A stretch of DNA of 64,000 bases from Oceanispirochaeta sp. (GCA_963663385.2 CAXXXD010000001.1:224001-288000), one strand, 5' to 3'. Numbered from the stretch's first letter, positions 53,979 to 62,498 are shown. Translations and numbers: made by a program. The notes: generated by a model from the sequence alone, not told the origin.

Positions 53979-55110
53979 AAATACTCTTGATATCCTCTTG
54001 TTCTGCTTCTCTGGGGTTCGTTACCAGACAGATATCCTTGAGAGAAAGAGCGGCAAGGGTCCGGCATTCCTCTTCTGTCAAAGCGAAACCGGACACTTCC
54101 CTGTCAATTCCGGTTATCTCTATAAGCCGGTCAAGCTCGAAGGACAATCCGTCGATTCCCGGGGCAGGAAGCCTCCCCTGCCCGGCGGCCAGCAGAGCGG
54201 TGATTCTGTCATATCGTCGGGGACAGGCCGAATAATTGAATCGACAGACATTCTTCAACAACAGCCCGTTACATATGCCATGAGGAAAATCTTTCAAACC
54301 TCCCAGGACATGTGCCATGGCATGCACCATTCCCAGACTGGCATTGGAAAAGGCCAGTCCGGCTTCCAGAGAGGCCTGCATCAACCCGTTCAGAAGAGCC
54401 ATATCATGAGGTTTCTCAACAGCCATTACCAGATTGGCTCCGATCAGTTCAATAGCCCCCCGGGCATGCCGGTCCGTGATAAAGGAATGGGCTGTTGAAA
54501 CATACGCTTCTACTGCATGGGTCAGAGTATCAAGGCTGACGGCGGCCAGCAGATCCGGACTCATGGTTGTAAGGGTATCCGGATCAATTATGGAAATATC
54601 GGGAACCAAAGCTTTGGACACAATGGCTATTTTTCTGGCTTCAGTCGTATTGTTAATAATGGCAAACTGACTGACATCCGCAGAACTGCCGCAGGTTGAG
54701 GGAATACATATCAGGGGAGGAATGGGCCGCGGGATCTGATCAATCCCCTCAAAATCGAGGATATATCCGCCGTTTGCAGCGACAATCCCGATCCCTTTGG
54801 CGGCATCAATAACACTTCCTCCGCCTACGGCAATTACTACATCGCAGTTATTTTTCCTGTAAAAATCAGCGCCTTCCATAACCTGGAAGTCCCGCGGATT
54901 CGGGAGGATCCGGTCAAAAACGACATAGTCAAGGTCTCTGTCTTTCAGTTGAGATTCTACCCTTGTATACCAGGGAGTACGCCTCACCACCGGATCGGAA
55001 ACCAGAAGAATCTTCGTCGCACCCAGATGTTCGGCATATTGGGCTGTCAGCGAAAGGCTTCCGGATCCGAAAATGAATTCCGGGGCAACAAATTTTCTTA
55101 TACTATCCAT
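53953..55110 (-). CDS. Iron-containing alcohol dehydrogenase, ErcA-like
   Basis: RKFVAPEFIFG.G, GGGS..D..K, D.LTHA.E, FSNASLG.VHAMAH, PHG. Confidence 0.85.
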   Translation of the reverse strand: MDSIRKFVAPEFIFGSGSLSLTAQYAEHLGATKILLVSDPVVRRTPWYTRVESQLKDRDLDYVVFDRILPNPRDFQVMEGADFYRKNNCDVVIAVGGGSVIDAAKGIGIVAANGGYILDFEGIDQIPRPIPPLICIPSTCGSSADVSQFAIINNTTEARKIAIVSKALVPDISIIDPDTLTTMSPDLLAAVSLDTLTHAVEAYVSTAHSFITDRHARGAIELIGANLVMAVEKPHDMALLNGLMQASLEAGLAFSNASLGMVHAMAHVLGGLKDFPHGICNGLLLKNVCRFNYSACPRRYDRITALLAAGQGRLPAPGIDGLSFELDRLIEITGIDREVSGFALTEEECRTLAALSLKDICLVTNPREAEQEDIKSIYERTFPRK

Positions 55111-55173
55111 CAGATAAACCTCAGAGTTGAATTCTAAATGAAACAGAAGAAGACTGCAAATTCCAAGCACTAT

Positions 55174-55200
55174 TTATCGGGAAGAACCGGAATGCTATTA
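55174..55200 (-). promoter_or_regulatory. Sigma28-like promoter upstream of the ErcA-like gene
   Basis: TAAT-N15-CCCGATAA. Confidence 0.45.
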
Positions 55201-55334
55201 ATCAACCAGATTTCCCGGTTCCTGTAATGAATAATTAGAAAATACCTGCGGAATGAAGAGAACCTCATCCCCCGAAGGGAATCGTATAAGTATCCGGGGT
55301 TGAACAGGACCGACAACCCCGGCGTTTGGTGATA

Positions 55335-56321
55335 TCAGGCGACAGGAACCCTTGCGGCTTCCATAAACGCTTCCAGGTTTTCATCTGGTGTTTCCATGGG
55401 GAGGTCGCATCCGGCGCTGAGCACGAAGTTTTTATAGGGTTTCATTTTTTCCATCAGAGCTGTTGTATCGGCTTTCACGGATTCGGGGGTTCCCTGAAGG
55501 AAAACCTGAACCGGATCCAGATTTCCGATAAGAAGAACATCTTCGGGGATTTTCTGAATGGCGTCCACCATATCGATCTGCCAGTCCACACTGAGGGCTG
55601 CCGCTCCGCTGGTTCCCATCTTTTCTATTAAATGGGAAGTATTACCGCAGATATGCAGTATCAGAGGCTGATTGTCCACCTTCTCCTGAATTTCCCGGAA
55701 GGGGGCCAGGGAGAACTCATCAAACTGCTCGGGAGAGATCATCATAGCCGTGGGTTCCAGCATACAGACCATATCGGCTCCGGCGTCAAAGAGTCTTTTT
55801 GCATAACCGGAGATAACCTCTACGGTAAAGGGCAGAAAGGCTTTAACCAGATCAGGATCCAGGATGGTGTTCATAGTCAGCTCGTTTACTCCCATCATTT
55901 CCCCCGCCAGGGTAAAGGGTCCGCTTACGTAGGGAATGGTTAACCCCCTGTTGTCGGCAGCCATATTTTTTACAACCTCCACATACATATCCATCCGGCC
56001 GCCGTTGCCTGTCCAGGCCGATTTTACAGCTTCCAGGTCTTCCATTGTTTTAATGTCATGGCCGGAGACATGGGGGCTCTCGTTCTCTCCCATTTCCACA
56101 GGGAGTCCCATAGCTTCCGCTTCCACGGTCAGGTCCATAAGCATGCACATCCCGTCCGGCTGAAACCGGTCTCTCAGGGCACGCAGGGTTTTAAGCTGTG
56201 TTTTCCCATCGGTCAGGTTCTGTTTGAGGGTCGTGTTTGTCATTTTGACGCCGTTTACACCCATCAGGGGCAGCACAGGAACATGCCCCAGACTTTTTAC
56301 TTTTTCTACGATTGATGACAT
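55335..56321 (-). CDS. Uroporphyrinogen decarboxylase-family protein (MtaA/CmuA-like corrinoid methyltransferase fold)
   Basis: DLTVEAEA.G, GPFTLA, LHICG (Zn), GNLDP, LSAGCDLP..TP. Confidence 0.8.
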   Translation of the reverse strand: MSSIVEKVKSLGHVPVLPLMGVNGVKMTNTTLKQNLTDGKTQLKTLRALRDRFQPDGMCMLMDLTVEAEAMGLPVEMGENESPHVSGHDIKTMEDLEAVKSAWTGNGGRMDMYVEVVKNMAADNRGLTIPYVSGPFTLAGEMMGVNELTMNTILDPDLVKAFLPFTVEVISGYAKRLFDAGADMVCMLEPTAMMISPEQFDEFSLAPFREIQEKVDNQPLILHICGNTSHLIEKMGTSGAAALSVDWQIDMVDAIQKIPEDVLLIGNLDPVQVFLQGTPESVKADTTALMEKMKPYKNFVLSAGCDLPMETPDENLEAFMEAARVPVA

Positions 56322-56510
56322 ATCTTAATCCGCCTTTATTTGCAACTTTTTAAATTATTATATGGCTGTCAAGGGATTAAAGATGGCCGGTTCTTTTGAA
56401 TTATTGTACTATTTTATCGGGTTTAGCTAACGGGCGACGATTTATATATTACTGTTTTTGTATTATTTATATGTCAAGTAATAATAGAAACATCGTTTAA
56501 AATAATAACC

Positions 56511-56624
56511 ATGCCAAGAAAGATGACCGTTGAACTTCTGCCTATACAAAATCAGGACGATAACAATATTGGGAAAAGAATAGCAAATATTAGAAAACAG
56601 CAAGGATTTGAGAGCCATGAATGA
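56511..56624 (+). pseudogene. Truncated XRE-family HTH regulator remnant
   Basis: My translation MPRKMTVELLPIQNQDDNNIGKRIANIRKQQGFESHE*; the IGKRI..IRK..G opening of XRE helix 1 ends before the HTH. Confidence 0.55.
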
Positions 56625-56636
56625 ACTAAAGGAAAA

Positions 56637-56906
56637 TCAATCCAAATAGACATTCTTACGATGTCCGACTATTACAACGAGGATGACAACTTCGTTATCG
56701 ATAATATCGCAGATGATCCTGTAATCCCCGACTCGGTATCTCCACAGGCCTCTTTTATCACCCACAAGAGCTTTTCCCTTGGTTTGCGGGTTCTCCAGTG
56801 TGGCAACCTCATCTTCAAGATAATCAAGGATCTTTGACTGCCACTTTTTATCTATCTTATTAAGCTGCTTTTTGGCAGTGGCCGTAAAATCAACGTTCCA
56901 GGCCAA
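56637..56906 (-). CDS. Type II TA toxin, RelE/StbE family
   Basis: A.KQL.K.DK, GKAL.G...GLWRYRVGDYRIIC.I, GHRK.VY. Confidence 0.93.
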   Translation of the reverse strand: MAWNVDFTATAKKQLNKIDKKWQSKILDYLEDEVATLENPQTKGKALVGDKRGLWRYRVGDYRIICDIIDNEVVILVVIVGHRKNVYLD

Positions 56907-57102
56907 GTTCTTTTCTCATATCCTCAATTGAGGTACGGGGTTCTTCTTTTTCCAGAACGGCAAGGGCCAATAGACACTCTTCCCTTTCTTCCAGGTAGTT
57001 ATTTATGGCTTCTTTCACATAATAGCTTTTGCTCCGGCCGGTTTCTTTTGCCAGACGGGTTAATTTATCTTCAACAGACGAATCAAGGCGTACTGCCAAC
57101 AT
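56890..57102 (-). CDS. Type II TA antitoxin, RelB/CopG (RHH) family
   Basis: MLAVRL......L..LA..TGRSKSYYVKEAI..YLE; AGGAGG RBS; overlaps the toxin. Confidence 0.9.
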   Translation of the reverse strand: MLAVRLDSSVEDKLTRLAKETGRSKSYYVKEAINNYLEEREECLLALAVLEKEEPRTSIEDMRKELGLER

Positions 57103-57117
57103 TTCAGGCCTCCTTGT

Positions 57118-57134
57118 GTATAACAAGTATAACA
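57118..57134. promoter_or_regulatory. Probable antitoxin operator (direct repeat)
   Basis: GTATAACA-A-GTATAACA just upstream of the antitoxin RBS. Confidence 0.55.
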
Positions 57135-57165
57135 TTATAAGTAAAAGCAATCAATTCAGCTATCA

Positions 57166-57320
57166 ACCGAACCAGCAAAAGCAGGAGTTCGTTCCTCGAC
57201 TTCGTCTGCGGTACGACTCCGAGGTGAACAGAATGCAGCATTATCGGATCAGCGAAGAATGAGCTTCGGACAATGTCGTATTCTGTTTAGCGACTCCCGG
57301 AGCGGACTTGCGGGTTCTCA
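57166..57320. repeat. Long branched palindromic element, attC-like
   Basis: Outer GAACCAGCAA...TTGCGGGTTC; inner AACAGAAT...ATTCTGTT arm (57227-57287) flanked by CGACTCC copies. Confidence 0.45.
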
Positions 57321-57378
57321 GCCGGAAAAAATTCATATTCAGACCGGAACTTTTTCACCGGCGAAAAATAAAATTCAG

Positions 57379-57437
57379 TCATAACAAGAATATTGCTGCC
57401 GTTTCCCTTCGGTCACAGCAGAACAATGGTGTTATGA
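57379..57437 (+). repeat. Integron attC-like site (59 bp)
   Basis: TCATAAC (R'') ... ATTGCTGC (L'', one extra G) ... GCAGAAC (L') ... GTTATGA (R'); the R boxes are perfectly complementary. Confidence 0.65.
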
Positions 57438-58154
57438 TTAAAATGAAAACAATTTAAATGGAGGATTTGTATATTGTCTTAATTCTCCTGTGTAATCTCT
57501 ACGAAATGCTATGACTTTTATTAAGTAGTCCCTTTCCTTTGAAAATGGTTGTGAATATGAAAGAACTCCAAGGTCCATTTTTATATTATCAATTTCATCA
57601 ACAGATACCAACTCTGATGAATTTAATTTTGAAAGATCAATTTCAAGATTATCTTTTGAAGTCATAAATGAAAGTGCATCCTGTTGAGTTTTAACATCTA
57701 TCAAAAAGATTCCATAATAATCAGCATACTTTTTACTAATAATCTTAAGTATGGATTCATTCTTCTTTTCTACCCTAACAGGACTTGCTGGATACAAGAT
57801 AATTTTTTGATTCAAATCACTGATCTTGTATACAGAATCCTGAAGGAAGAGAAATACTGGGTTATTAATTTTAAATTCATCATCTTCTTTATTAGAAACA
57901 CTCCTTAATAAGAATTTGACGTATATCTCATCTTTTTGAGGTTCAAACTTAAAGAATTTCAAGCCAAAAATATTTAATTCCTCATCTCGAAGAATATTCC
58001 CATTCTCATCATAAGTCTTAAAATCAATTGTATAGTCCCAAATATGACTTTCTGAATCCGAATTATTAATACTTCCTTGGATTACATTACCATTAACTTT
58101 GCAACTGGCAAGAAGTAAGATTAAAAAAATCGATCGAATGCTCTTTTGTACCAT
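57438..58154 (-). CDS. Lipoprotein, putative Rhs immunity protein
   Basis: LLLASC lipobox; very AT-rich; overlaps the end of the Rhs-CT ORF. Confidence 0.65.
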   Translation of the reverse strand: MVQKSIRSIFLILLLASCKVNGNVIQGSINNSDSESHIWDYTIDFKTYDENGNILRDEELNIFGLKFFKFEPQKDEIYVKFLLRSVSNKEDDEFKINNPVFLFLQDSVYKISDLNQKIILYPASPVRVEKKNESILKIISKKYADYYGIFLIDVKTQQDALSFMTSKDNLEIDLSKLNSSELVSVDEIDNIKMDLGVLSYSQPFSKERDYLIKVIAFRRDYTGELRQYTNPPFKLFSF

Positions 58155-59235
58155 GGTCTTAAATCTTCCTTTAATGCTTTATCTATTAAGCTTGGAGATT
58201 GATGTCTAAGCTTTTCGTTTGCTTCCTTCTCAGGTAATGGGTCTCCCGATGGACTATTTGAATACAAATCATTATCAGGATTTTTTGAATCTGTAGTGTA
58301 TACTTCGTAACCGTCTAATCCTTCTGTCTTTGGATTATCATATGTTACTAAATAGTTTTTACCAAATTCTGAATTATTCATTATTTCAGCAGCATTTGGA
58401 CCAGAAAGTGCACCTACTTTTCCATAACCATTATCATGAGAATCCAAGGCTCCTAAACTTTCACCCATTCCCAGTAATATAGAACCATCCTCATATGTAT
58501 ATGTCTTATATTTGGGATCAGAATTGGGGTCAGAAATCGTTGGGCCATCCCGATGTTCTGGGTTACCATAAGGCCCTAATTGTTCTATCTTCTCTTTGAA
58601 AATTTCTTCTTCTGATTTTTCTTTCTTAGGGGCTTCATATGGTTCATTCTTCTCGGATTTATCTTCGTCATCATCATTCCCGTAATCATCACCAGGAACT
58701 CTGCTCATCCCGGATGGATCTATAAATTTAAGTGGATTGTTTGAAACATAGATAAACCAGTTTTGGCCATCCCGAGCCGGGTCCTCGGAGATAAACCGAC
58801 CGGTATCCGCATCATACCACCTGGCATTGTAGTAGTAGAGCCCGGTGTCTTCATCGAGATCCTTTCCGGTATACTTCAAATCCACATCATAGTAATCATC
58901 CGACTTCTTAACAACCGCATCACCAAAAGGCGTAGCCTCGGAAGACCAGACCTTTTCACCCGAGCATTGGTCATAAGCACGGTTGATCCCTGATGATCGG
59001 TTCCGTAATAAAGAGTCTCATCCGCTGTTACACGGGCCAGATGTCTATTCTTTAAAAAGACCGAAGTGATCACTTCGCCGGACTCCTTATCAATCTCTTC
59101 CAGGACCTTACCGGACGTATCGAATACATAATGGGTCTTCTTCCCATCCCTGTTTTCTTTCTCTACCCGGTATCCGTCTATATCATACAGGTAACGGGCG
59201 ATATTTTCCACGTTGTCACGATCAGCAAACAAACC
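58121..59235 (-). pseudogene. Orphan Rhs/YD-repeat toxin module: 5'-truncated core, 1-nt frameshift near 58962, open C-terminal domain
   Basis: Y.YD.DG.RV.K and YYGTDHQGST in one frame; GEKVWSSEATPFG..KYTGKDLDEDTGLYYYNARWYD..GRFISEDP..NW..Y..NNP..IDPSG in the next. Confidence 0.88.
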
Positions 59236-59244
59236 ATTTTTAAT

Positions 59245-59493
59245 ATGATGAAAGTTTTCTACATACAGATGAAATCTCTGGAATCCCTTCTGGATGAAGC
59301 GGAGGAGCATCTGGACAGACGGAATCTGAGGTCTGCTGAAGACTGTATCTCACGCGCTCTGGTTGTGGATGAAAGGTCTGTTGAAGCTCTGTACCTTCAG
59401 GCTGTTTATTACTCTTTGAATGGGGAAGCTGAGAAATCACAGATCTCTCTTGATACAATAAGGAAAATCGATCCAGACTTCCCGAGAAATTAA
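59245..59493 (+). CDS. Small TPR-like protein
   Basis: A...I..AL..D....EALYL.A..Y...G...K......I..DP; stop abuts the duplicated lysS terminator; start uncertain. Confidence 0.55.
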   Translation: MMKVFYIQMKSLESLLDEAEEHLDRRNLRSAEDCISRALVVDERSVEALYLQAVYYSLNGEAEKSQISLDTIRKIDPDFPRN

Positions 59494-59594
59494 AAAAACC
59501 CGATTCCTGAGAACCGGGGCCTGAATTCAAATGAATAGAGTCTAATACAATTCAAGCAACGAGAGAAACTTCTCTTTGCCGATGGTATAGAGGA
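59492..59594 (-). repeat. Displaced duplicate of the lysS 3' end plus terminator (att-like direct repeat, copy 1)
   Basis: Matches 60189-60295 apart from about 6-7 differences. Confidence 0.92.
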
Positions 59595-59601
59595 CACGGC
59601 T

Positions 59602-59820
59602 TTACTCCGTATGATTCTGGATATACTCTCTCAGAGCAGCATTCATCAATGTCTGATAACCGACTTTCTGCTCTCCTGCCAGTTTCCTGAAGTAAAGGAT
59701 AATATCGTCGTCCAGACGAATGGTTGTCGGTTTCTTGCGGGGAACGTAGAACCTTCCTCTCACTCCTTTTGAAAAATCATATTCGTCTTTTACTTCAAAC
59801 TTATCTTCCGACTGTTTCAT
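59602..59820 (-). CDS. brnA: BrnA-family antitoxin
   Basis: KDEYDFSKG.RG.F, K..TTIRLD.DII.YF, GYQT..N..LR. Confidence 0.9.
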   Translation of the reverse strand: MKQSEDKFEVKDEYDFSKGVRGRFYVPRKKPTTIRLDDDIILYFRKLAGEQKVGYQTLMNAALREYIQNHTE

Positions 59821-60091
59821 ACTGTCTCTGCTCATGGACTGTAGCCTCCCTGGCACTGATAATTCGAATAACCTCTTCATAGTTTTCATCAAAATATAAG
59901 TTGGCAACAACCAGCAGTTTTCGTTGACCGGTCAATCCTATCGTTATCCACCTTTCTTCAAAATAACTGAACCGTTCATCCATAACGGCCAGATGCAAAG
60001 GATCATCAAATACTTCTCTGGCTTCTTCAAATGAGATACCGCGTTTTTCAATATTGCTTTGATTCTTTTTTATATCCCATTCGAACCTCAT
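59801..60091 (-). CDS. brnT: BrnT-family toxin (DUF497)
   Basis: MRFEWD..KN..N..K.GISFEEA..VF.DP, E.RW.TIG, IRIISAR.AT..E...Y. Confidence 0.92.
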   Translation of the reverse strand: MRFEWDIKKNQSNIEKRGISFEEAREVFDDPLHLAVMDERFSYFEERWITIGLTGQRKLLVVANLYFDENYEEVIRIISAREATVHEQRQYETVGR

Positions 60092-60188
60092 AATTAATGA
60101 TACCCCCCCTCGTACATACATCGTCAATACATAAGTTTTAACCTTACATTACTAAATGCAGAGTAAAAGTCCGATAGAATTCAGAGTC

Positions 60189-60295
60189 AAAAAAAAGCCC
60201 CGGTTCCTGAGAACCGGGGCCTGTAATTCAAATGAATAGTGTCTAATACAATTCAAGCAACGAGAGAACCTTCTCTTTGCCGATGGTATAAAGGA
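60189..60295 (-). repeat. Active lysS 3' end plus terminator (direct repeat copy 2)
   Basis: Perfect hairpin GCCCCGGTTC-CTGA-GAACCGGGGC with a T-run on the minus strand; last ~17 codons of lysS. Confidence 0.92.
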
Positions 60296-61832
60296 AGCTG
60301 ATCAGACGGGGGCCTTTTTCCTTGGAAATAAGGGCCCGGTAAACAGCGGTAAAAAAATCCACCGATTCCAGTTCCAGTTCCTTCATCATATCGTAGACTC
60401 TGGTACCGAAATCTTTTTCATCCAGAGAATCCATATCCTCTTTGACAATAACAGCCAGACGTTTCAGAGCTTCTGTATTTTTCCCGTTCTGCTCGACCTT
60501 ACCCTCTTCGGGAGTTCTCAGGGCAAACTGGAAGTCTTCGGGAGCAAATTCCTTTACCCAGTTCCAGGCACAGACCATTCTCTGACGGAGCCTTTCCTCC
60601 TGTTCAGGCACCACATCACCCAGATAGTTCATTACCGCATCCACATCGCCGGAGAAGATCTGCAGCAGGTTGCAGAGGTGACGTATCTGAATCTGGTAGG
60701 GCATGGTCCCGGGAACCTCGCCCACCTGGGACAGTTCGTATATCCGTGCCTGTTTTTCCCACTTCTTCAGAGCTTTCTCGGACTCGGGTTTATTGAAATA
60801 AGCACGCTCGCACTTGTCATAGTCTTCATATATTTTCAGAACATCCAGATCGAAGGAAATGGCGAATTCCGTGTTGGGCCGGGTACCGGCAAACATATAC
60901 CGGATAACCTCGGGCTGATAGATTTCCAGAACATCCGCCAGGGAAATAACCTCGCCCGAAGAAGAGGAAATCTTACCGCCTCTCCCTTTGATTCTGATAA
61001 AGTCATACTGGAACGTAACGGGAGGTTCATGACCGTAAACCTCTTTCGCTGTTATCCTGGCCGTATCAAAGCTGCCGCCTTCCGAGTGGTGATCCTTTCC
61101 CGCCGGTTCAAAGTCAACCTCTTCCTGCTTCCATCTCATGGGCCAGTCGATTCTCCAGGGGAGTTTAACCGCATGGGTTGTTTTCAGATCCACCGTCTCC
61201 TCGTGACCGCATTCGCAGGTATAGCTTACACCGTAATCGCCGTCCCATCCCGTAACGGTGGTCGTATCTTTGTCACAGGCTGTACAGAAAACGGAAACCG
61301 GCATCCAGTCGTCCGCCAGAGGCGTTGTCCGGCTGGCATCCAGCTGCCGTCTGATATCTTCCTTATGAACCAGGGCTTTTTTAATTCCCTCGGCGTACTC
61401 GCTGTTCCGGTAGCGCTTGGCCTGATAGATATATTCCGGATCGACCCCTACCGCCGGCAGCAGTTTCTCCAGCTCTTTCTCATTGGCCGCAGCGTAGCTC
61501 TCCTCGCTGCCCAGTACATCGGGAACAACGACAATGGGTTTGCGCAGATACGTTTCCAGGAGCTCCTGCTTCGGCATGTTTTTGGGAACTTTTCTGAAAA
61601 CATCATAATCATCCCAGGAGTAGATAAAGCGGACTTTTTCACCCTTATCTCTCAGGGCGCGGACTACGAGTTCCACCGAGATAATCTCCCGGAAGTTTCC
61701 TATATGTACAGTACCGGAGGGGGTAATACCCGACGCACAGGTAAAGTGCTCCTTCGGTCCTCTTTCTCTGATAATTTTATCGGCGGTGATATCCGCCCAG
61801 TGTGTTGATTTCGGTTTCTTATTGTCACTCAT
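60243..61832 (-). CDS. lysS: Class I lysyl-tRNA synthetase
   Basis: HWAD, SGITPSG.VHIGN.RE, KL.WR.DWP.RW, GKDH, KISSS, GPRL..F. Confidence 0.96.
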   Translation of the reverse strand: MSDNKKPKSTHWADITADKIIRERGPKEHFTCASGITPSGTVHIGNFREIISVELVVRALRDKGEKVRFIYSWDDYDVFRKVPKNMPKQELLETYLRKPIVVVPDVLGSEESYAAANEKELEKLLPAVGVDPEYIYQAKRYRNSEYAEGIKKALVHKEDIRRQLDASRTTPLADDWMPVSVFCTACDKDTTTVTGWDGDYGVSYTCECGHEETVDLKTTHAVKLPWRIDWPMRWKQEEVDFEPAGKDHHSEGGSFDTARITAKEVYGHEPPVTFQYDFIRIKGRGGKISSSSGEVISLADVLEIYQPEVIRYMFAGTRPNTEFAISFDLDVLKIYEDYDKCERAYFNKPESEKALKKWEKQARIYELSQVGEVPGTMPYQIQIRHLCNLLQIFSGDVDAVMNYLGDVVPEQEERLRQRMVCAWNWVKEFAPEDFQFALRTPEEGKVEQNGKNTEALKRLAVIVKEDMDSLDEKDFGTRVYDMMKELELESVDFFTAVYRALISKEKGPRLISFLYTIGKEKVLSLLELY

Positions 61833-61840
61833 GGCAAGGA

Positions 61841-61869
61841 ATTATACAGACCCTTTTACCCAATGGCAA
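61841..61869 (-). promoter_or_regulatory. Sigma70 promoter of lysS (probably leaderless)
   Basis: TTGCCA-N17-TATAAT, 8 nt before the ATG. Confidence 0.72.
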
Positions 61870-61928
61870 CAGATAAGGGAGGCTCCCATACAGAAACCTC
61901 CCTCTTTGGAAAAAAATGTACCGGAAAA

Positions 61929-62498
61929 TCAGCCTCTGCGGGGCCTTCTTCCTCCGGATCTGCCCATCGGGCCATCCTGAGCCATTCCGCCCATACGTCC
62001 CATTCCATTTTCCAGAGTAAAGGTCTCGCCATCGATTTCAGCGCTCACAACGTGCAGGTAGAGGGATTCGGTTTCGTAATCCCAGGCCATACGGGCTCTT
62101 TCGGTTACATCATAACCACTCAGCTTGACACTTTCGCCGCCTTTCAGCTCAACCTGATCAAAAGCAAACCGGGGAACCATAAGAAAAACCTTTTCTCCAT
62201 TCTGTTCAATATACGGGAGCATAGCTTCCTCCAATACCAGTACACCCTCTACTTCAATGGTTTCGGGGGTTACAGGGTTTCCCTCCTCGTCGTACCAGCA
62301 GAACTCACCGGCTGCACCGCGGGGATCTCTCCGATCCATATCCCGGCCCCGGCCGAAAGTATCCTGATCCCGGGCATACGACCCGCCGGATCCTCTTCCG
62401 AATGTATCCTGAACCGGAGCCTCTTCCTTGCTGCCGCTGGCAGATAAGGCCCCTGCCGCTGTTACCACCATCAGACCAATCATCATAATCTTCTTCAT
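61929..62498 (-). CDS. Hypothetical secreted protein with G/R/M-rich low-complexity ends
   Basis: AGGAGG RBS, signal peptide, QDTFGRG twice, possibly OB-like core. Confidence 0.72.
   Translation of the reverse strand: MKKIMMIGLMVVTAAGALSASGSKEEAPVQDTFGRGSGGSYARDQDTFGRGRDMDRRDPRGAAGEFCWYDEEGNPVTPETIEVEGVLVLEEAMLPYIEQNGEKVFLMVPRFAFDQVELKGGESVKLSGYDVTERARMAWDYETESLYLHVVSAEIDGETFTLENGMGRMGGMAQDGPMGRSGGRRPRRG

Follow-up and report, generated by a model that had tools for sequence, protein, structure and literature searches.

What kind of genetic system lies downstream of lysS in this spirochaete, and how was it assembled? The window, by which we mean the whole 64,000-nt stretch of Oceanispirochaeta sp. 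DNA that was analyzed, falls in GC content from about 0.50 to 0.28-0.47 in the region 56350..60295, where neither ORF calls nor a family profile search found a recombinase ORF. A sequence-only reading had described this region as a composite accessory island, a recombinase-free system built by lysS-targeted integration and attC-type recombination, with toxin tips perhaps shuffled like integron cassettes. The parts that it named (XRE stub, RelBE, two hairpins, immunity/Rhs-CT pair, TPR gene, lysS 3′ duplicate and BrnTA) all lie where it placed them, and its view of the locus as accessory and composite is borne out by comparison downstream of lysS: the locus is not identical across relatives, the island being missing in 10/10 same-genus genomes compared. 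The right boundary is formed by the host class I lysyl-tRNA synthetase gene with its terminator (60190..61832, gene 60243-61832, minus strand; PF01921), which is 82-87% identical across 10/10 genus relatives. On the left, host DNA resumes at ~56406, where the lysS-uroD spacer of a relative (G010) matches 56308-56406 at 75% identity; the adjoining 63 bp at the island edge (56407..56469, no strand) are unassigned, and 56396-56480 gave no informative match in the genome or the fetched loci. An Rfam scan of 55000-62000 returned four sub-threshold matches only, on the lysS terminator or host DNA.

The center of the island is a truncated toxin gene. At 58706..59210 (minus strand) lies an Rhs 3′ end, consisting of the core and last YD repeats with the 5′ part deleted (TIGR03696, 73 bits; TIGR01643), in which a frameshift near 58965 separates the upstream YD fragment from the core and tip. 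Positions 58699-59210 are 75% identical to the end of a 3416-aa Rhs in a sister species (G003). The DPxG core end is followed by a 194-aa C-terminal tip (58121..58705, minus strand), whose stop codon is overlapped by an ORF for a putative 238-aa immunity protein (57438..58154, minus strand); a DPxG-ended core stub, a variable tip and an overlapping small gene are the features of an orphan Rhs-CT/immunity module. The toxin and immunity roles are putative and assigned by position only. Among 88 candidates the tip has one homologue, also behind an Rhs core and 46% identical, and it has no usable match in Atlas. The immunity ORF (GC 0.28-0.30, N-terminus lipoprotein-like by eye) belongs to no family, has no homolog among 371 candidates and finds nothing in Atlas beyond unnamed clusters with a score of 0.85; for this module a single-sequence structure prediction reached a pLDDT of 35 and gave no useful model.

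Next to the Rhs remnant, at 59237..59493 (plus strand), is the supposed TPR gene, one of two named parts, with one of the hairpins, that did not stand as described. Rather than an intact host gene, it is the last ~80 codons of a lipoprotein gene, matching residues 120-200 of a 204-aa protein whose gene is the last of a G003 type II secretion cluster (57% identity). The G003 layout, which is taken as ancestral, runs immunity-Rhs-giant gene and then a divergent type II secretion cluster-TPR; relative to it, the window has lost ~27 kb between the Rhs and TPR 3′ ends, leaving them back to back. No full-length Rhs or type II secretion system is left in the window's genome (G000). By these comparisons the locus is what deletion has left of an Rhs-toxin and type II secretion island, with the tail of a mobile element still in place; it is a ruin, a decayed toxin-delivery island and no working system.

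The tail of that element can be traced part by part. At 56470..56649 (plus strand) lie promoter-proximal DNA and an XRE regulator stub (56511-56649), recognized by similarity to the XRE of an element in G007: compared with that 130-aa protein, identity is 94% at the start and 89% at the end, the C-terminal part of the stub is 91% identical to the XRE of G000, of which the assembly has four copies, and an internal loss of 254 bp falls at an 8-bp microhomology (56601-56608). The tail cargo is a RelE/ParE-family toxin (56637..56906, minus strand; PF05016, 62 bits) with a ribbon-helix-helix antitoxin (56890..57102, minus strand; PF01402); like BrnTA, this RelBE/ParDE pair is type II, with adjacent toxin and antitoxin above Pfam cut-offs. 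A unit in G003 has a 92% identical RelE/ParE protein in the same position, and the tail of G003:C13 unit 2 matches 56629-57441 at 84% identity. In every Oceanispirochaeta unit examined, the attC-like hairpin is followed by a conserved tail module (here 57321..57378, minus strand). A single-copy 33.5-kb record (two runs, one sample) joins the XRE end to the hairpin as in the window.

What had been read as a recombinase-free system is thus a deleted remnant of a two-recombinase element that is intact three times elsewhere in the genome. This ~9 kb element encodes XRE, ParA, a primase-helicase and two tyrosine recombinases. The three G000 backbones are 99.5-99.7% identical with different tips downstream, and their read depth is ~3x that of the flanks (run X1), which fits three copies. 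Relatives of the element occur in several phyla. An Rhs core-end motif lies within 2.6 kb behind the last recombinase in 42/72 units, which are not mutually independent, compared with 0/72 on the opposite strand and 32/4080 background windows. The other 30/72 units have no core motif within 2.6 kb, and a single spirochaete family, in which ParA lies behind the recombinase, supplies 11 of these 30. G031, E. coli MP1 and two loci of G017 have units directly behind full-length Rhs genes, and a CdiA version of the element is joined at VENN codons, with three units behind a full-length gene. The spirochaete version carries BrnTA, RelBE or PIN pairs with two recombinases; the enterobacterial relatives have a single recombinase and a helicase 35% identical to the spirochaete one. 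No capsid, terminase, relaxase or transfer genes were found in the element. In G000, two tip modules begin directly at host stop codons, and the host genes concerned are neighbors in 7/10 and 7/8 relatives, a placement for which the element model does not account.

Where the element joins the toxin gene is seen most clearly in sister units. In five within-genome pairs the units are 100% identical left of the joint and 71-80% identical right of it, the first mismatch falls between 2 nt ahead of the N codon and 20 nt past it, and the two G000 left ends turn identical at the same joint position. For Oceanispirochaeta, for which no empty allele was found, sister-copy mismatches between G000 and G003 bracket the joint to ~4 bp; the equivalent position in the window is 58831..58834 (minus strand), in the YYYNARWY codons of the core, and crossover would occur within these bases. 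No inverted-repeat arms are evident by eye around it. The joint varies from one lineage to another but is fixed within each, at conserved codons of Rhs and CdiA. Joint class tracks a quick recombinase tree (9 changes versus 17.0 shuffled, 0/200), a pattern that kinship alone would also produce.

Empty and occupied alleles are available for E. coli rhs. Compared with the empty allele NZ_CM192134.1 (Ec-U14-2), the occupied alleles NZ_CP117672.1 and NZ_CP051765.1 (KW21, SCU-113) carry a ~7.8 kb insertion with a 15-bp repeat in the core, and the tips are exchanged, the old one displaced and a new one installed. A short direct repeat against an empty allele is the mark of a site-specific integrative element, here at family level, as the comparison comes from the single-recombinase enterobacterial relative and not from the Oceanispirochaeta lineage. 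Circular plasmid records holding little but the element also exist (NZ_CP055112.1, NZ_CP072857.1), which could be collapsed tandem arrays. A circle joint was not in the contigs of four runs; contigs drop rare forms, so this is uninformative.

One possible hypothesis for these joints is a single illegitimate entry into rhs per lineage, after which RecA-type recombination between cores swaps tips and the recombinases only resolve or replicate the circle. The cores are 71-85% identical over 120 bp, tandem units give kilobases of homology, inheritance would carry joint class along the tree, and the same gene order would follow from the published circle model (Jackson et al. 2009, PMC2935791). However, the E. 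coli insertion shares a stretch of 15 bp, with no core sequence to the left of the joint at the right end of the element; immediately past the joint, sister units differ by as much as unrelated cores; and the joints are lineage-specific and internally fixed at conserved Rhs and CdiA codons. We consider this explanation improbable. Instead, the element probably integrates site-specifically into the conserved Rhs core, with the locus downstream of lysS as a deleted remnant that still carries its tail, a reading drawn from sequence comparison.

The hairpins raise the separate question of an integron. The hairpin at 57379..57437 (plus strand), in opposite orientation to the immunity gene it follows, starts at the base right after the immunity stop codon, carries an extra C on its gene-distal arm 9 nt from the box, and scores 24.1 bits, on the plus strand only, with a home-made model built from four attC sites of this genome (not the IntegronFinder model). 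The other proposed attC-like hairpin, at 57227..57287 (no strand), has no match to this model at E<=10; it is a second palindrome class of the element tail, with an outer ACAGAA box and an inner TTAT box, that recurs in tails of G000, G003, G007, G017 and G038. The best DNA-fold z-scores of the two are -1.6 (57227-57287) and -3.1 (57379-57437). The prediction that other Rhs-CT/immunity pairs end in the same element held: every such pair in the genome (7/7) is closed by a related hairpin of 58-85 bp, each with complementary R″/R′ boxes. Across 17 family hairpins, the box is AAC/GTT in 14 and AAG/CTT, with a compensatory change, in 3; the stems cannot be aligned with one another, so that RNAalifold on the 17 recovered the 7-pair box and nothing else. 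The 130 matches of a loose hairpin scan across the genome were mostly chance and were not used.

Could the tip/immunity pairs then be integron-type cassettes, moved by an integrase of this genome? An IntI is indeed present, as that reading had suggested checking (TIGR02249, 381 bits against a cut-off of 265), the hairpins match the attC model, if weakly, complementary boxes with AAC/GTT at a gene 3′ end are attC traits, immunity stop codons lie from 16 nt before the hairpin box to inside it, and hairpin types reassort with tail types. By published definition, however, the extrahelical base of attC lies on the gene-proximal R″-L″ arm (PMC2727003); it does so in 4/4 intact attC sites of this genome, whereas in the module hairpins it is gene-distal in 15/17 (proximal in one, undecided in one), and attC-model matches fall on the anti-gene strand in 5/5. 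The AAG/CTT boxes also depart from attC, and the 5′ side has no GTT-type site. Hairpins are missing in G031 (0/3 modules) and in the enterobacterial units examined. The IntI lies on contig C2, other than the island's, the element recombinases score only 102 and 90 bits on TIGR02249, and the locus has one attC-like hairpin, so that it is neither an integron nor a CALIN. Tips do get shuffled, but the notion of integron cassettes is not supported: the 5′ joint falls within the Rhs core, the hairpin has the opposite polarity to true attC, and tips are shuffled in enterobacterial relatives with no hairpin. We regard movement by IntI as very improbable.

Alternatively, the hairpin alone may be an RNA-level signal, such as a processing stem or one resembling a terminator, or else a palindrome that is copied along passively, and no recombination site. 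It sits directly behind a stop codon in a tail with several other palindromes, the family works elsewhere with no hairpin, and a promoter scan is at chance level (11 versus 11.1 expected). Against this, one unpaired C is retained 9 nt from the box in all three stem types, although their sequences are unrelated, the box change in 3/17 is compensatory, and the hairpin at 57379-57437 has no U-tract and is not called by terminator prediction. On balance such a role seems rather unlikely.

The right part of the island has a history of its own. A lysS 3′ duplicate, the last ~17 codons plus terminator (59492..59594, minus strand), is 93.4% identical over 106 columns to 60190-60295, and terminators are predicted at both copies. 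Between them lie BrnA (59602..59835, minus strand; PF14384) and BrnT (59801..60091, minus strand; PF04365), ~41% and ~42% identical to the element's own BrnA and BrnT. The duplicate could be the att scar of a lysS-3′-targeting element shrunk to BrnTA, with the Rhs island earlier at the same site, as a 105-bp direct repeat of last codons and terminator brackets BrnTA at 701-bp spacing, and this BrnTA is only ~42% identical to the element's. Yet none of the 10/10 genus genomes has a lysS island, no integrase is nearby, and local duplication followed by insertion gives the same look. A low-sensitivity DNA search of 37 family genomes found no second lysS copy or linked BrnTA, so the earlier claim of lysS-targeted integration is left with one 105-bp duplicate. 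The chances of a scar are close to even, leaning slightly against; the BrnTA unit and duplicate are probably a separate small relic.

Taken together, the mobile unit would be a circle carrying tip, immunity gene, toxin-antitoxin pair, XRE, primase-helicase and recombinase, whose own recombinases would cut at the Rhs core. On integration the full-length toxin would receive the element's tip, while the old one would come to lie behind the element's recombinase, toxin-antitoxin pairs may stabilize the element, and excision through repeated tails could leave the element's tip behind and take the resident one. The reversed attC-like hairpin might serve in this lineage as a second, single-stranded recombination site joining new tip/immunity pairs to the tail; this is a guess. 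More broadly, and tentatively, these cross-phylum, self-replicating integrative elements may possibly be a dedicated shuttle for polymorphic-toxin warheads, with recombinases that target Rhs-core or CdiA-VENN codons and re-arm the toxin at each insertion, and with the spirochaete hairpin capturing the resident pair on exit.

The window itself matters solely as a footprint. Since 2009 the model for how Rhs and CdiA gain tips has been homologous recombination with a circle whose origin is unknown, and we know of no integrase for it; the element family offers a candidate circle, enzyme and site, and insertion at a fixed spot in toxin genes would explain the acquisition of new tips. The family is present in 54/5,426 complete E. 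coli genomes, and the question of tip gain is therefore experimentally testable. If true, the proposal adds recombinases aimed at conserved codons rather than tRNA genes, and natural attC-like hairpins with inverted polarity.

Among known integrative elements, e14 inserts in a coding gene, icd, and restores an equivalent gene end, and PICI-like phage satellites combine integrase, repressor and primase with packaging or interference genes and mobilization by a helper phage. The present element shares with these site-specific insertion in conserved codons, small size, regulator, primase, recombinase and toxin-antitoxin cargo, and has the PICI-like set of integrase, divergent regulator and primase. 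Unlike e14, it supplies a different functional domain. No packaging or interference genes were found among 16 element ORFs scanned, two small ORFs having no assignment, and its helicase has no match among 50,697 phage records.

An attC site is an imperfect palindrome with an AAC/GTT box, an unpaired spacer and one extrahelical base (Bouvier et al. 2009, PMC2727003). The hairpin shares all of these and the position at a stop codon, but its extra base is on the other arm, 9 rather than 8 nt from the box, and there is one hairpin per module with no array; an opposite-arm extra base moves the crossover to the gene-proximal box (PMC2727003). Recombinases also adjoin immunity loci: XerC/D at polyimmunity loci (Zhang et al. 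2012, PMC3482391), co-oriented orphan immunity genes arrayed downstream of one tyrosine recombinase in the Bacteroidales rAID (bioRxiv 10.1101/2025.05.03.651265) and Xer by Rhs poly-immunity arrays of Xenorhabdus/Photorhabdus (Martinkus et al. 2026, cited in bioRxiv 10.64898/2026.07.13.738213). Tyrosine recombinase, low-GC immunity genes and conserved intergenic motifs are shared, but those arrays stock orphan immunity genes behind one recombinase, whereas the present units have a replication gene, keep tip and immunity together and insert inside the toxin gene. Two recombinases, a primase-helicase and a spirochaete host likewise set the element apart from rAID. The arrays of Martinkus et al. 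are distinguished here as the citing paper describes them, and may overlap; within the literature searched, where that study figures by citation only, no description of the element was found.

SymE neighborhoods contain cHTH, Prim-Hel, RHS and haemagglutinin genes (Kawano, Aravind, Storz 2007, PMC1891008), and the enterobacterial element shares with them SymE, XRE and a DnaG-type primase fused to an MCM-like helicase, by RHS or haemagglutinin genes. In that paper the genes appear solely as toxin-family context, with no mention of an integrase, boundaries, target site or tip exchange. Closest in outcome are the orphan Rhs modules, in which core stubs, tips and immunity genes stand in arrays (Poole et al. 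2011, PMC3150448; Koskiniemi et al. 2014, PMC3967940), and the displacement model, in which a circle with a new tip enters by a single crossover and shunts the old tip and immunity gene downstream (Jackson et al. 2009, PMC2935791). The present proposal shares with that model the downstream movement of the old tip and immunity gene by crossover with a circle. It differs in that its circle would have its own recombinase or recombinases, primase-helicase, regulator and toxin-antitoxin pair, and in that the joint is fixed within a few bases.

The island proposed in the sequence-only reading, an assembly of Rhs, toxin-antitoxin (TA) and integron-like parts without a recombinase downstream of lysS (56350..60295), contains all of the parts that were named and lies between a URO-D-family gene on one side and class I lysS on the other. 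Comparison with relatives places its left edge, where host sequence resumes, at about 56406. It is indeed accessory, as the loci downstream of lysS carry no island in 10 of 10 same-genus genomes, where lysS is followed by Fe-ADH (6), era (2) or URO-D (2, one of these with a short ORF between). The absence of a recombinase is true of the locus but not of the genome (5.3 Mb, 4 contigs), since a related element with two recombinases is intact elsewhere in it.

This ~9-kb unit runs from a stub of the conserved Rhs core through a C-terminal toxin tip, immunity gene, hairpin, tail, BrnTA, XRE (in reverse) and two small ORFs to ParA. It continues with an 889-aa CHC2/Toprim primase bearing a P-loop domain at its C-terminus, recombinase 1, recombinase 2 and a further core stub, tip, immunity gene, hairpin and TA. 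The assembly displays the element four times; because two of these are incomplete, lie at contig ends and share a 5,057-bp overlap (99.96% identity), we count three, in agreement with a backbone depth of 169 against 55-73 in the flanks (run X1). Despite backbones that are 99.5-99.7% identical among themselves, the downstream tips of the three copies are mutually unrelated, and the sole matching pair among the seven tips of the genome is two upstream tips (100% identity). Another tyrosine recombinase pair on contig C2 (1528400-1531900, L266) is unrelated to the Rhs element copies.

The window itself keeps far less. Its Rhs and TPR 3′ ends are 27 bp apart: 58699-59210 aligns at 75% identity with the 3′ end of the gene for a 3416-aa Rhs of the relative G003, and 59237-59393 at 72% with the 3′ end of a G003 gene for a TPR lipoprotein. 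In G003 the TPR gene end lies ~27 kb beyond the Rhs end on the same contig, in the same relative orientation as in the window, and the interval encodes a giant protein with Ig/fn3 domains together with a type II secretion cluster (GspG, A24 peptidase, secretin, GspE, GspF). A tblastn search of the whole genome under study found no full-length (long) Rhs, giant protein, secretin or GspE. The XRE stub consists of the start and end of a regulator of the type seen in G007, joined at an 8-bp microhomology, while RelBE, the palindromes and the hairpin (56629-57441) match the tail of a G003 element unit at 84% identity. Judged from these alignments, the window locus is a deletion ruin, an inert remnant that points to a wider family. 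As a separate observation, the 3416-aa Rhs of G003 (C10:1-29000; L236, L256) has Ig-like domains and is adjoined by the giant protein and secretion cluster, and a similar cluster adjoins the G031 locus (L046); delivery of Rhs linked to type II secretion is possible in spirochaetes.

Units occur in relatives (four in G003, two in G031, three in G017, and also in G007, G038 and others), and lie immediately 3′ of a full-length Rhs once in G031 and twice in G017, where the first unit carries the same tip as the full-length gene. A helicase profile built from 11 sequences matches in 30 of 401 genomes of the phylum (E<=1e-30) and in at least 512 of 602 metagenome stretches. We counted 72 units, having dropped 14 loci that were duplicated or short-flanked, one duplicate row, and those with no recombinase, or <900 bp, behind the helicase. 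An Rhs core-end motif follows the last recombinase within 2.6 kb on the same strand in 42 units and on the opposite strand in none of the 72, against a background of 32 in 4,080 windows of the genome (7 of these being real cores); as the units are non-independent, these counts are descriptive and carry no test. Of the 30 units without the motif, 11 belong to one spirochaete family and have ParA after a lone recombinase. Related primase-helicase/recombinase elements also stand in tandem, with no Rhs core motif after the recombinase, in family f41 (L220-L229, L239, L240) and genome G297 (L216-L219). As cargo they have ParA/ParB-like genes or different pairs of low-GC genes, and their target may be a different class of toxin.

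In Oceanispirochaeta the element ends within the YYYNARWY codons of the core. At the right ends, five within-genome pairs are 100% identical left of this joint and 71-80% identical right of it, and no mismatch comes earlier than 2 nt ahead of the Asn codon. The two left ends in the genome diverge up to 7 nt before the Asn codon and are identical from there, and the mismatches of both ends combined bracket the crossover to ~4 bp. In other lineages the joint is likewise fixed but differs in place, lying at the FTG codons (G017 C4) or the DG-x-W codons (G031 unit 1, G017 C1, G038). The three joint classes take 9 changes on a quickly built tree of 41 recombinase pairs, compared with 17.0 for shuffled labels (0/200), and five of the seven late-joint units fall in one branch (98%); kinship alone could explain why joint class tracks the recombinase tree. 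In sequencing runs X3 and X5, loose ends connect a G031-type element end to these cores with an identical joint; the site is thus shared by related elements in that sample. In 9 of 9 Oceanispirochaeta units (L016:2109-3095, L017, L018, L040, L042, L044), moreover, an ATG supplied by the element end lies in frame 26 codons ahead of the joint, and a displaced tip may still be translated from it.

Enterobacterial relatives extend the family. Plasmid records encode proteins with 35% identity to the helicase. Two circular records, 8.8 and 11.3 kb long, consist of little more than XRE, SymE, immunity, tip, a core stub that opens at the DPIG codons, an XerC-like recombinase and primase. On an Enterobacter plasmid, three units with their joints at the VENN codons come after a full-length CdiA-type gene. 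At least 80% of a recombinase-primase query is found in 54 of 5,426 complete E. coli genomes, and the four regions examined are all at rhs loci, beside ansP-pptA (3) or ybfD (1). The tip/immunity pair behind the recombinase in KW21, SCU-113 and YZ3-11 is the pair on the full-length Rhs of Ec-U14-2, which is without the element (4 of 40 listed matches were opened, the fourth, IH5, being rearranged). Identity between KW21 and Ec-U14-2 extends on the left to 15 bp beyond the first base of the DPIG codons and begins on the right at that first base; the ~7.8 kb between in KW21 holds a new tip, a second orphan tip, SymE, XRE, primase and recombinase. This difference bears the apparent footprint of a single site-specific crossover exchanging tips. 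Backbone-less orphan tips of E. coli Rhs (L284:13100) and Enterobacter CdiA (L282:9993) begin at the codons where element-borne tips begin, and have a short leader motif in common.

The hairpin of the window (57379-57437) had been taken for an integron cassette end that other Rhs tip/immunity pairs might have in common. The latter expectation was borne out, as each of the 7 pairs in the genome is terminated by a CATAAC...GTTATG hairpin, which comes in three sequence types and precedes a common tail. It also ends five G003 modules examined, two of G007 and some of G017, but 0 of 3 in G031, and the enterobacterial units examined have terminator-like stems only. A single C is left unpaired on the gene-distal arm of 15 of 17 hairpins, at 9 nt from the box (one of the others has canonical geometry and one fails a strict pairing test), whereas in the four intact attC sites of the genome the unpaired base is a G, found on the gene-proximal arm at 8 nt from the box. 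PMC2727003 defines attC by an extra base on the proximal arm; when this base is relocated, crossover switches to the opposite box. With a model built from the four attC sites of the genome, element hairpins score 17.5-26.7 bits (E from 2e-4 to 0.05), all 5 of them on the anti-gene strand; other attC sites in the arrays score higher, at 28.7-69 bits. The hairpin is thus reversed relative to a true attC and is not read as a cassette end; we read it as a putative reversed attC-like site of uncertain use. Hairpin types reassort with immunity genes and with tail types, which places breakpoints on both sides.

A search for intI did find IntI on contig C2 (381 bits, cut-off 265). Its array is intron-laden, with group II introns inside attC sites (C2:1673000-1689000, L001). 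The second hairpin (57227-57287), also proposed as attC-like, has no match with the attC model. Palindromes of its class (L040, L041, L042, L044, L047-L049, L051) recur in element tails in both orientations, their boxes facing opposite to the attC-like hairpin. Compensatory AAG/CTT boxes instead of AAC/GTT are seen at L047:8102-8171, L049:16809-16895 and L051:8147-8210, and such hairpins are not expected to serve as IntI substrates. In genome G001 (C3:200715-203780, L271), two tip/immunity pairs, one tip M23 peptidase-like by eye, have a hairpin and element-end-like leader between them and no backbone.

Two tip modules in the genome start at host-gene stop codons, between host neighbours that adjoin each other in 7 of 10 relatives for one module and in 7 of 8 for the other; both modules have ~45 bp of core to the left of the usual joint and lack a full-length Rhs. 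Core stubs starting at or near host stop codons were noted at C4:311712, C4:1140012 and C3:1633526 (L016, L019, L017), all between convergent genes that adjoin in relatives and without full-length Rhs, two of them starting <=5 nt apart in core position. This suggests a second route for moving tip modules. In the window, a 105-bp lysS repeat encloses only the BrnTA pair, which is ~42% identical to the element's own. A DNA search found no similar arrangement in 37 family genomes, and the duplicate may be an att scar.

Parts of this picture have precedents. The gene neighbourhood was drawn in 2007 as SymE context in PMC1891008, and XerC/D beside immunity arrays are already noted in PMC3482391, bioRxiv 10.1101/2025.05.03.651265 and bioRxiv 10.64898/2026.07.13.738213. 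In the openly accessible literature searched, we found no account of such a bounded element, nor of the site it uses or of what it does to tips. The parts are of known kinds and the family is a new form of integrative element, one that renders testable the old question of how toxins gain new tips.
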